This document shows positions 21,377-23,210 of a DNA stretch of 64,000 nt, in pieces. Within the stretch, counting starts at the first letter, position 1. Every line of letters starts with the position of its first letter. Source of the DNA: an uncultured bacterium (GTDB lineage: Bacteria; Eisenbacteria; RBG-16-71-46; CAIMUX01; WJJG01). The translations under genes were made by a program, and so were the position numbers. The stretch spans positions 21,792 through 85,791 of the forward strand of contig CAZDKK010000014.1 in NCBI GenBank assembly GCA_964506245.1, written 5' to 3'. A model generated the notes under the pieces. That model saw only the letters and a program-made list of their open reading frames with translations. It was not told the origin of the DNA and ran no database searches.

Positions 21377-21632
21377 ATACCTCACTCCACCTCGAATCCC
21401 TGGCTGGAGAACTTCAGCGTCCGCCCATTCTCCGTCACCACCCGCACCACGTGGTCGGGCACGCCTTCCGGCAGCGACGCCTCGATGTCGAGCGTCACCC
21501 TGGCCTTGGCCCCCGGCAGCGCCGCGAGGTGCGCGATCACCTCCTCGGCGATCTTGCCGGCGTCGGAGCCGAGGCGCATGGGGTTGCACAGCTCGACGGT
21601 GCCGTAGAAGCGCCGCGGCTTGGGTGGGGGCG
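21377..21632 (-). pseudogene. Truncated duplicate of the 3' end (~80 codons) of the DUF499 ATPase gene
   Basis: ~255 bp at ~90% identity to 22955..23210. Encodes ...PPPKPRRFYGTVELCNPMRLGSDAGKIAEEVIAHLAALPGAKARVTLDIEASLPEGVPDHVVRVVTENGRTLKFSSQGFEVE but is closed by an in-frame TAG immediately upstream, so there is no upstream body. Confidence 0.7.
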
Positions 21633-21788
21633 CTGGCTAGCGTTGTGACCAAGTCCTATCGTAGGGTGCCGCGGGTTCCGCGAGGCATCTTCGGGAAGGG
21701 CCCGCGAACGAACCACGGGATCACTCGATGCAGGAGGAGATCTTCTCGTCTATCGCCTGCCGTATCCAGCGAAGTGTACAACGAAGGG

Positions 21789-22484
21789 TCAGCCCCGCCG
21801 CTTGCGGAAATGTGCCAGCGTACCCAGGCCGGCGAGGCTCACGGCCAGAAGCGTAACGACACCTGGCTCAGGGACAGCTCGGACGCCACCCAAGTCGAGC
21901 TGGTAGTCGAACCCCCACTCGTACCACACCGGTCCCATCCAATCCGCTAAGGGATTGGCCGCACCGGGACCGTTGGGGGCCCATTCGCCTGTGTAGTACA
22001 GTGGATCCTCAACGTCCCAGATCAGTTGATCGATGGAATCGACCGGATCCCGGTTGTATCTCGACAATGCGAGGTAGTAGTTGCCTGGCGCAGGCACGAG
22101 CGCCCCCGTGATTGTCGACAGCTGATTGCCAAGGGTGTAATCCCCGACATCCTCGTTGAAGACCACGCCGCGTCCCCCCGCGTCGAAGAGGTACAGCGTT
22201 GTGTCGTTGGAGTACCACAATGGGCCATAGGTATACGGATTGTCGGTGCTGGCCATGAACAGCGCCACGTCGTAGATGTTGACGTAGTAGACATCCACGT
22301 CATCCGGGTACCCAAGCGAACCGTAGATCGTGGAGAGGTCTCCCGTTCCCACGGGGGTCTCTGCGCTGCTCAAGAGTTCCCCCGCATCCATTTCGTACCA
22401 GACCAAACCGTGCGCGGGCAAAGCCGCGAGCGCCAGCGCCGCCAATCCAATCCCGAAGTGACGAATCATGCCCATCTGGCCCAT
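21789..22484 (-). CDS. PEP-CTERM-anchored secreted protein
   Basis: ATG at 22484 is 6 nt after GGAGG; signal peptide. C-terminal VPEPGVVTLLAVSLAGLGTLAHFRKRRG is PEP, then a TM helix, then a basic tail. Confidence 0.7.
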   Translation of the reverse strand: MGQMGMIRHFGIGLAALALAALPAHGLVWYEMDAGELLSSAETPVGTGDLSTIYGSLGYPDDVDVYYVNIYDVALFMASTDNPYTYGPLWYSNDTTLYLFDAGGRGVVFNEDVGDYTLGNQLSTITGALVPAPGNYYLALSRYNRDPVDSIDQLIWDVEDPLYYTGEWAPNGPGAANPLADWMGPVWYEWGFDYQLDLGGVRAVPEPGVVTLLAVSLAGLGTLAHFRKRRG

Positions 22485-22599
22485 GGTGAACCTCCGCGAA
22501 GCATCTTGCTGTCCGCCATCAGGAAACACCCCACTGCTTCATGTCGCCCTCGATGATTCCACCACCCTGCCGGCCCTGCATGGGCGCTCCAAAGGACGA

Positions 22600-22850
22600 C
22601 CCACAATTGTCCAAGCAGGCTACGTGCCACAGGGCTCAGAACATGCACTGCCTTGAATCTCTTGGAGTTGCGCATCAGGGCCATCGCGCCGTGGGCTCTT
22701 TCGATGTACTGACTGTCTGAGCAGCCTGACACTGCCAGGACTTGGCTGCCGGGGGCGTGAGACATAACCACAACCCCAGTAGTGAGTTGAGAGAGCGGTC
22801 GCGATTCTTGTGGGTGTTTCCGTTGGCAGACATCGCATCTCGCTCATCGG
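22600..22850 (-). mobile_element. Decayed IS5-family transposase N-terminal fragment (frameshifted)
   Basis: On the minus strand, ...RDRSLNSLLGLWLCLTPPAAKSWQCQAAQTVS resembles the IS5 HTH block LNGILWVLRTG..WRDLP..GPWQTVY. In the adjacent frame, SGCSDSQYIERAHGAMALMRNSKR resembles IDSTxVRAHQHAAGAKK. No intact ORF or terminal inverted repeats were seen. Confidence 0.4.
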
Positions 22851-22954
22851 CCTCAGGTTCGAGAATATCGCGCCCCGCTGTGCGCCGGTGGAGATGGATT
22901 GGCCGGTCGCTTGCTTGCTGCCGACTTCCCCTGGCGAATGGCGTTCGGCGAGAT

Positions 22955-23210
22955 TCCTCACTCCACCTCAAATCCCTGACTCGAGAACTTGAGCGTCCTC
23001 CCGTTCTCCGTCACCACCCGCACCACGTGGTCGGGCACGCCTTCCGGCAGCGTGGCCTCGATCTCGAGCGTCACCCTGACCTTGGCCCCCGGCAGCGCGG
23101 CTAAGTGCGCGATCACCTCCTCGGCAATCTTCCCTGCGTCGGAGCCCAGGCGCATCGGGTTGGTCAGCTCGACGGTGCCGTAGAAGCGCCGCGGCTTGGG
23201 CGCGGGCGGG
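22955..23210 (-). repeat. Direct-repeat copy B (native 3' end of the DUF499 gene) paired with 21377..21632
   Basis: Aligns base-for-base with 21377..21632 starting a few nt downstream of the stop codon; identity is lost upstream of the PG-rich linker-coding region. Confidence 0.7.

Follow-up and report, generated by a model that had tools for sequence, protein, structure and literature searches.

The 64,000-nucleotide (nt) stretch of DNA analysed here (the window), from an uncultured bacterium of the Eisenbacteria lineage, carries an Hma defence locus whose last gene, hmaC, is followed ~1.3 kb downstream by a second copy of its own 3' end. This stub has no gene body, and we consider it, with a probability of roughly 0.6, to be what remains of the 3' end of an earlier, or the resident, hmaC allele, orphaned when the C-terminal part of that allele was displaced by incoming DNA. 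The reading draws on the repeat itself, on allele-level divergence under selection, on the recurrence of such stubs in other genomes, on mosaicism among related tails and on the lack of insertion sequence (IS) or integrase genes between the copies, from which the order of events, the identity of the resident copy and the type of join are inferred. In this window, the stub is a neutral scar without evident function. The elements concerned, in window coordinates, are:

22958..26335, minus strand: intact hmaC, encoding an HEPN_Swt1 + DUF499 ATPase of 1125 aa (Pfam, PADLOC)
23201..23296, minus strand: low-complexity linker, rich in Pro/Gly (GGNCCN runs), that joins the HmaC body to its conserved C-terminal domain (CTD)
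22948..23208, minus strand: downstream copy of the repeat (dn), the CTD-coding end of hmaC, with a few linker codons, the last 80 codons and ~10 nt past the stop
21372..21632, minus strand: upstream copy of the repeat (up, or win_up), taken as the orphaned hmaC 3' stub (repeat alignment)
21637..21639, minus strand: in-frame TAG directly 5' of the stub, bordering the retained linker codons

Self-alignment pairs 21372-21632 with 22948-23208 as a direct, ungapped repeat of 261 nt at 90% identity, and blastn returns 256 nt at 91.0% identity (E 2e-103), in agreement with the same-orientation repeat of ~255 bp at ~90% (here 256-261 nt at 90-91%) put forward in an earlier note on this DNA. The two copies differ at 23 positions, still have identical runs of 36 and 49 nt in common, and are each flanked on both sides by unique sequence. 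As the same note had it, the downstream copy is the last 80 codons, plus a few nucleotides past the stop, of the DUF499 ATPase gene, now recognised as hmaC, and the upstream copy is bodiless and has an in-frame TAG (21637-21639) immediately on its 5' side. The stub comprises 5 linker codons, the 80-codon CTD, a stop codon (21382-21384) and ~10 nt beyond; the TAG would mark the illegitimate junction. The repeat unit is in effect the CTD that follows the Pro/Gly linker, such that the proposal of a separable domain holds in all but its size, which is ~80 aa and not 65 aa, with family conservation beginning at P-K/R-R-F/Y-H/Y-G. A sequence search of the PDB with the CTD gave no match, and Foldseek with an AF2 model of it (pLDDT 69) gave nothing below E=0.9.

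The character of the divergence between the copies is central to the argument. Over the 80 codons of the CTD there are 20 nt differences between up and dn, with 14 synonymous and 4 conservative non-synonymous codons, giving a synonymous rate (dS) of 0.27, a non-synonymous rate (dN) of 0.035 and a dN/dS of 0.13, for which full neutrality is rejected (p=5e-5). Even with the 7 changes private to the intact copy removed, too few non-synonymous changes are left for a neutrally drifting stub (p=0.03). When seven close copies are compared (up and dn of the window, copies 1 and 2 of locus L002, and copies A, B and C of locus L006, both loci being described below), the stub is 94.2% identical to L006 B and 93.3% to L006 A, as against 91.7% to its own neighbour, and between the intact window tail and the L006 C stub there are 18 changes, every one of them synonymous, the encoded proteins being 100% identical. 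The closer kinship of the stub to the L006 tails, taken with these all-silent differences, points to a pool of diverged alleles and to no local homogenisation. Moreover, the low dN/dS and the allele pattern indicate that most of the divergence arose while both sequences served working genes. Constraint was relaxed only afterwards and only on the terminal branches leading to stubs, as judged from private changes (synonymous/non-synonymous) of 7/0 in the intact window tail, 1/2 in win_up and 3/6 in L002_2, the last including RRFY>GRWC, where random mutation is expected to be 74% non-synonymous. In other words, the two copies are different hmaC alleles and not the products of a duplication in situ.

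That latter origin, by which a tandem duplication (IS-mediated with a long target duplication, or from replication slippage) would have been followed by divergence, does account for two nearby copies of the same orientation that align without gaps, but there is no IS present, the stub lies nearer to another genome's alleles than to its neighbour, and the dN/dS of 0.13 extends to the stub's own share of the changes, which is likewise poor in non-synonymous changes relative to neutral drift. Nor do we know of any transposition that produces target duplications of 255 nt. In-situ duplication is accordingly very improbable, and the IS-mediated insertion that had stood among the causes first proposed is rejected. 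Harder still to credit is an assembly artefact, in which a chimeric contig of a metagenome-assembled genome (MAG) joined two strains at the conserved tail. The window probably does come from a MAG, and one apparent duplicate tail elsewhere (L009, 8480-8585) had to be left out of the counts as an artefact of scaffolding, its two copies being 100% identical on either side of a run of N. Against this, the copies have 23 differences and unique flanks, a chimeric join would yield one hybrid copy and not two, and the arrangement recurs in independent assemblies, including L001/L002 (99.8% identical to each other), a chromosome-level record (L083) and a 10.4-Mb contig (L058).

This recurrence was followed through 168 loci in total, drawn from the contexts of short-ORF (open reading frame) protein matches, short ORFs being all that a protein search with the stub matched, and from two collection scans with domain alignment. 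Each of the two scans kept only its 80 best matches, which are complete domains, and the start positions of stubs given below carry that bias. A profile built on 68 full-length HmaC proteins was used to survey 164 loci and the window; 99 of the CTD copies were at the end of a full-length gene, 49 were interrupted by a contig end and 25 were stubs, i.e. stubs make up ~25/124 of the assessable copies. In the window, L001/L002, L006, L058 and L083, the stub comes next downstream after another hmaC tail, with which it shares its orientation. The first pair (JGI 3300056902 / 3300056905), from two samples, has the order tail, LVIVD-repeat gene, stub, with the stub beginning in the linker. L006 (CAZRWW010000005.1, MAG binchicken_co7_194, 1-10255), which is related to the window organism at 87-93% nt identity, contains three hmaC tails, of which A runs off the locus start, B is a 950-nt stub and C a 255-nt stub; the cargo between them consists of an AAA_15/21 ABC-ATPase, an MNT nucleotidyltransferase, an AAA_14/DUF4143 protein and an RtcR-like fragment. 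In L058 a 140-nt stub, truncated inside the domain, sits ~1 kb after the intact gene, and in L083 a frameshifted and decayed stub follows the intact gene by 60 nt.

Several features of these loci may be recorded in passing. The LVIVD cargo protein of L001/L002 has an FlgD_ig-like C-terminus; in both these loci and the window, the gene beside the hmaC tails encodes a secreted or surface-sorted protein, not a defence protein. Both cargo segments of L006 contain a 231-nt repeat (3109-3339 vs 6497-6727, 93%). At the level of the full-length protein, HmaC is 71-72% identical to the window protein in a Pseudomonadota MAG (L009) and in an Ardenticatenaceae MAG of the Chloroflexota lineage (L058), and two archaeal MAG contigs (L050, L059) reach 67% identity over the CTD alone. 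Such unusual conservation of HmaC across phyla suggests frequent inter-phylum transfer.

The survey also bears on a different history, in which the stub is the relic of a separate, older Hma locus, at this site or next to it, that was later deleted or replaced, with the right end of the deletion in the linker, and in which the present Hma island and the PEP-CTERM gene that lies between the copies arrived independently of one another. Isolated stubs with no hma genes within ~10 kb are indeed common (L005, L036, L047, L073, L111, L139, L142 and L168), several of them standing alone at the borders between housekeeping and variable genes; L142 has three hmaC fragments, its stubs being truncated inside the domain. 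Some stubs are plain deletion fusions. In L047 (8972-10237) a 3'-truncated GDP-mannose 4,6-dehydratase gene (gmd) continues in frame through the linker and CTD as a chimeric ORF of 421 codons. L003/L004 (L004 7748-9291) have a decayed Hma locus with a mid-hmaB fragment joined to the hmaC linker and CTD. Allele-level divergence is explained equally well by such a history. It needs two events, however, where one suffices, and the recurrent order of tail then stub, in the same orientation, is that predicted by a one-step displacement. Furthermore, according to Payne et al., Hma is usually not beside other defence systems, and each hma gene occurs once in their curated set. On balance this two-step history, like the independent arrival that is part of it, is possible but doubtful.

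With respect to the neighbours in these loci, a dynamin-family GTPase gene comes after the chimeric gmd-hmaC ORF of L047, and the decayed locus of L003/L004 has a tyrosine-integrase gene directly upstream and a beta-lactamase-fold gene after it. The window stub also precedes a beta-lactamase-fold protein, 29% identical to that of L003/L004; the neighbour that they have in common is probably a coincidence.

The junctions themselves are informative as to mechanism. Those of win_up, L002_2 and L006_C lie ~15 nt apart, have unrelated upstream sequence and lack a conserved core, and from these differences it follows that they arose in independent events. This matters for the idea of a non-autonomous integrative cassette of the e14/icd type, in which a 1.6-kb unit (tail, spacer and PEP-CTERM gene) would target the boundary of linker and CTD and bring with it, by site-specific recombination, a replacement tail that keeps the gene intact. 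Such elements are classically recognised by a direct 3'-end repeat whose divergence is biased towards synonymous changes; stub starts do cluster near one place in the gene, and the cargo varies among genomes while the repeat unit is constant. Yet no integrase or recombinase gene is found between the copies of the window, of L002 or of L006, no tRNA is present, the junctions differ in close relatives without any conserved core, and stub starts overall range from profile position 248 to 1089. A cassette of this kind is thus improbable, as is the integration at a site inside the ATPase 3' end that the earlier note had entertained. Of its three proposed causes, cassette exchange by recombination comes nearest to the evidence, and its general claim of a recombination scar at the edge of the defence island is supported, now in the more specific form of an orphaned tail from another hmaC allele.

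C-terminal displacement would proceed as follows. The incoming DNA, from a related strain, would comprise another hmaC allele (or at any rate the tail of one) and ~1.3 kb of the donor's downstream DNA, namely the spacer and the PEP-CTERM gene. On the upstream side, homologous recombination would take place within conserved hma sequence, and on the downstream side an illegitimate join would form in the low-complexity Pro/Gly linker of the resident hmaC, a combination termed homology-facilitated illegitimate recombination; an equivalent structure would also result if the fragment had circularised and entered by a single crossover. The product would consist, in order, of an intact hmaC with the incoming tail, the foreign cargo, and a stub that begins in the linker and represents the resident tail. 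This stub, with neither promoter nor start codon, would have no function of its own and would be beginning to decay. The two direct repeats could in turn recombine, thereby deleting the cargo.

Some of the results weigh against this account and need to be set beside it. No pre-event or 'empty-site' genome was found, and the peptidase beyond the stub has no close ortholog in the database (best match 64% identical over 36% of the protein); necessarily, therefore, the polarity of the event, i.e. which tail was resident, and the type of join are matters of inference. In this lineage, homology-facilitated illegitimate recombination is so far only a proposed mechanism. Decay of the stubs is also weak: the private changes of the L006_C stub are 3 synonymous and 0 non-synonymous, and stub CTDs score near intact ones against the profile (145.7 vs 149.5, p=0.02, the intact copies being in the training set), which means that stubs are either young or somewhat constrained. 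Finally, stub starts fall in the linker (profile 988-1033) in 10/24 cases where 1.0 is expected, and among those with at least 3.4 kb of upstream sequence in 7/15 cases where 0.63 is expected (p ~1e-6), and this clustering is not predicted by a generic illegitimate join.

As the scans retrieved complete domains by best match, the clustering in the linker is partly an artefact, and stubs recovered free of this bias start at profile positions ~797, 1042, 1072 and 1089. A strict 'linker-specific hotspot' was consequently downgraded: the excess is significant relative to a uniform model, but retrieval is biased and the unbiased stubs start elsewhere. A general excess of short stubs is not cleanly separable from a true linker hotspot. 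The positions of contig breaks were set aside as an independent sign of one, their counts rising smoothly toward the 3' end as short contigs predict. The linker is nonetheless hypervariable among alleles, with 58-70% identity and indels as opposed to 87-98% in its flanks, and L006 A and B form a mosaic of 360 nt at 100%, a divergent block with the linker (58%, indels) and a CTD at 97.9%; recombination breakpoints accordingly lie on both sides of the linker. It is conceivable, if only tentatively so, that the 3' end of hmaC, and especially its indel-prone Pro/Gly linker, is a recurrent recombination hotspot for tail swaps and for the capture and loss of downstream cassettes. Were that the case, a stub and an intact tail, as direct repeats, would make cargo gainable and losable by homologous recombination, and hmaC would offer a recombinase-free route of cassette capture that could help to explain the frequent embedded and adjacent foreign genes in Hma.

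The weak decay of stubs raises the question of whether the CTD might be kept by selection as a functional stand-alone protein of 65 aa that, for example, modulates Hma assembly. There is indeed an intact 65-aa ORF with an ATG start inside the stub (21382-21579), many short CTD-only ORFs are present in databases, the L006_C protein is 100% identical to the intact window tail despite 18 silent differences, and the stub CTDs score near the intact ones. The ATG, however, is an internal Met of HmaC with no visible Shine-Dalgarno sequence, and what lies upstream of the stub is the in-frame TAG, close by, and no promoter-like site. Private substitutions of a non-conservative kind occur in win_up and L002_2, a frameshift interrupts the L083 stub, and the stubs of L058 and L142 are truncated inside the domain. 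Moreover, not every one of the 'short proteins' is a stub. P0045 comes from a whole Hma locus broken into many small ORFs (L166, 1-10384), and in the locus of P0039 (L167, 2366-5703) a frameshift in the linker leaves hmaC as two ORFs, one for the body and one of 63 aa for the domain; both were rejected as stubs, and their breakage could be true pseudogenisation or the outcome of an indel-rich assembly. Contig-end fragments are likely to be among the short CTD proteins as well. A selected stand-alone protein is, therefore, an improbable explanation, and the orphaned tail of a displaced allele remains the preferred one.

The DNA between and beyond the copies comprises:

22485..22957, no strand: non-coding spacer of 473 nt, from the hmaC stop to the start of the PEP-CTERM gene (no matches)
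21789..22484, minus strand: cargo gene for a secreted PEP-CTERM-type protein of 231 aa (translation from a Shine-Dalgarno/ATG start)
21640..21788, no strand: non-coding stretch of 149 nt, from the cargo gene stop to the stub junction (sequence)
21250..21279, minus strand: sigma-70-like promoter match, the sole one in the region (consensus match only)
18279..21176, minus strand: secreted beta-lactamase-fold / aspartyl-protease / PDZ protein (the peptidase), chromosomal flank (Pfam)

The cargo protein has a signal-like N-terminus and, at its C-terminus, VPEPG, a transmembrane segment (LLAVSLAGLG) and RKRRG, although against Pfam PEP-CTERM it scores under the curated threshold (16.6 vs 20.7 bits, E 0.009). 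P0117, on an NCBI 90-kb contig, is 100% identical to it, and a 41%-identical homolog sits amid housekeeping genes, a setting from which the cargo gene is taken to be passive. The guanine-plus-cytosine (GC) content of the spacer, at 58-65% vs 69-73% in hmaC, is consistent with a foreign origin; the spacer showed no similarity to any of the fetched loci by blastn or tblastx. The earlier note had placed between the copies a PEP-CTERM gene, with which the motif-bearing cargo gene agrees, and a decayed IS5-type transposase remnant at 22485-22957, which is not there: no transposase signal was seen in any frame, Pfam in six frames at E<=10 returned nothing, tblastn against 72,556 plasmids gave no transposase match (chance matches only, E>=2) and blastn none. 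The spacer is not flanked by inverted repeats, and a 255-nt repeat is far beyond any IS target duplication. Searches for tRNAs, Rfam families and terminators in the region found none. Only loosely can the stub be said to lie in the promoter region of the peptidase gene, as that note had proposed; 206 nt separate the stub stop codon from the peptidase ATG (21176) downstream of it, and the sigma-70-like site falls outside the stub, between it and that ATG.

Upstream of the repeat stands the Hma locus proper. The window has a GC content of 67%, and every locus gene considered here is on the minus strand:

36376..40062, minus strand: hmaA, SNF2-type helicase (PADLOC HmaA 1653 bits)
34896..36215, minus strand: embedded PDC-S01 gene (AAA_14 + DUF4143), between hmaA and hmaB (Pfam, PADLOC)
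31965..34874, minus strand: hmaB, DUF1156 adenine methyltransferase (PADLOC HmaB 1490 bits)
26339..31764, minus strand: embedded cassette of the cyclic-oligonucleotide-based anti-phage signalling system (CBASS), between hmaB and hmaC (Pfam, PADLOC)
30238-31764, minus strand: CBASS SAVED-endonuclease effector (525 bits)
29081-30223, minus strand: CBASS cyclase (505 bits)
27226-29172, minus strand: CBASS E1-E2/Cap2 (618 bits)
26339-26986, minus strand: unassigned 215-aa ORF within the CBASS cassette (no JAB (Cap3) or other match)

By PADLOC, hmaA, hmaB and hmaC occur together on one strand over 22958-40062, with hmaC as the last gene; HmaC scores 1141 bits and covers model positions 2-940 of 941, and its Pfam matches are to HEPN_Swt1 (3.8e-35) and DUF499 (1.1e-25). 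Defence activity has reportedly been seen for a related HmaA (PMC11232893). The CBASS cassette, of 56-65% GC, may be of type II: it has the cyclase, E1-E2 and SAVED effector, while the JAB (Cap3) protein that would be expected has no match in the 215-aa ORF. Beside the embedded CBASS and PDC-S01 cassettes there are no gene stubs or long repeats. Further out, a distant LVIVD-type paralog (27% aa identity to the L001/L002 cargo) lies just upstream of hmaA at 40253-42520; 46485-53465 contains large ORFs that match nothing in Pfam, one of them, of 2326 aa on the minus strand, overlapping long ORFs of the plus strand, and 54692-57049 encodes a protein with a Double-GTPase 2 domain (DO-GTPase2, E 7e-10). 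The DO-GTPase2 region and the neighbouring large ORFs may represent another conflict system.

The significance of the orphaned tails is best seen from the standing of Hma itself, which is among the most widespread defence systems, most of its members carrying embedded foreign cassettes. The tails would be a physical record of turnover, in that diverged hmaC alleles appear to circulate and recombine, foreign DNA is co-inserted at the 3' end of hmaC whether or not it has a role in defence, and whole Hma islands appear to be lost with the tail alone remaining. For annotation, the implication is that many database 'hypothetical proteins' of 60-140 aa are hmaC stubs or split genes and not real genes; the signal will escape pipelines in which pseudogenes are thrown out. 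The recurrence of stubs offers a concrete, if modest, clue to the turnover of Hma loci and to their gain of foreign genes.

Hma systems with embedded cassettes are described by Payne et al. 2021 (PMC8565338), and embedding is put at 62.7% of 1,485 Hma systems by Payne et al. 2024 (bioRxiv 10.1101/2024.01.29.577857). In that paper, term searches for 'remnant' and 'recombination' gave no result and no route of cassette entry is proposed; its curation left out pseudogenes and duplicated hma genes, such that stubs would have been filtered out. The window resembles known Hma loci in having hmaA, hmaB and hmaC on one strand with CBASS and PDC-S01 embedded in the same orientation, and differs from the known embedded cassettes in that its cargo, a non-defence gene, comes after hmaC and has a gene stub bracketing it.

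Two other well-known arrangements offer partial parallels. The e14 element in icd, and islands in tRNA or tmRNA genes, bring a replacement 3' end to the site at which they integrate. As in e14/icd, a direct 3'-end repeat brackets the inserted DNA at hmaC, the proximal copy keeps the gene intact and the divergence is mostly silent; unlike e14/icd, the window has no integrase, no defined attachment (att) core and no tRNA, and junctions are variable. In phase-variable Type I restriction-modification loci, silent partial copies of hsdS are usually inverted, have different specificities and are shuffled by a dedicated recombinase. There too, partial 3' copies of a defence gene adjoin the expressed gene, but the hmaC copies are direct, encode a near-identical protein and have no recombinase present.

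The remaining comparison is with the rhs, contact-dependent inhibition (CDI) and type VI secretion system (T6SS) loci, whose displaced or orphan 3' modules are reportedly the subject of Jackson et al. 2009. Scars of this kind are known from rhs loci and T6SS arrays; at Hma or hmaC, as far as could be found, there is no earlier description in the literature. The hmaC stubs have the marks of orphan modules in being 5'-truncated copies of the same orientation that come from different alleles, and do not include variable tips with a cognate immunity or partner gene. At the toxin loci, hypervariable toxin tips are kept with immunity genes, which gives arrays a selective rationale, whereas in hmaC the displaced part is a conserved CTD (88-98% nt identity among close relatives, the protein being nearly identical), the cargo is unrelated to it and locus-specific, be it a PEP-CTERM protein, an LVIVD protein or defence genes, and there is no evidence of reuse of the stubs, in contrast to toxin arrays. 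For the orphaned 3' regions at rhs loci and in T6SS effector-immunity arrays, displacement through homology-facilitated illegitimate recombination was put forward as the explanation (Kirchberger et al. 2017, PMC5361080), that is, a homologous anchor upstream and an illegitimate join downstream. As at those loci, an intact hmaC is followed by displaced 3' fragments of earlier alleles in the same orientation with other genes between them, and the three tails of L006 compare with arrays that grow by successive events.

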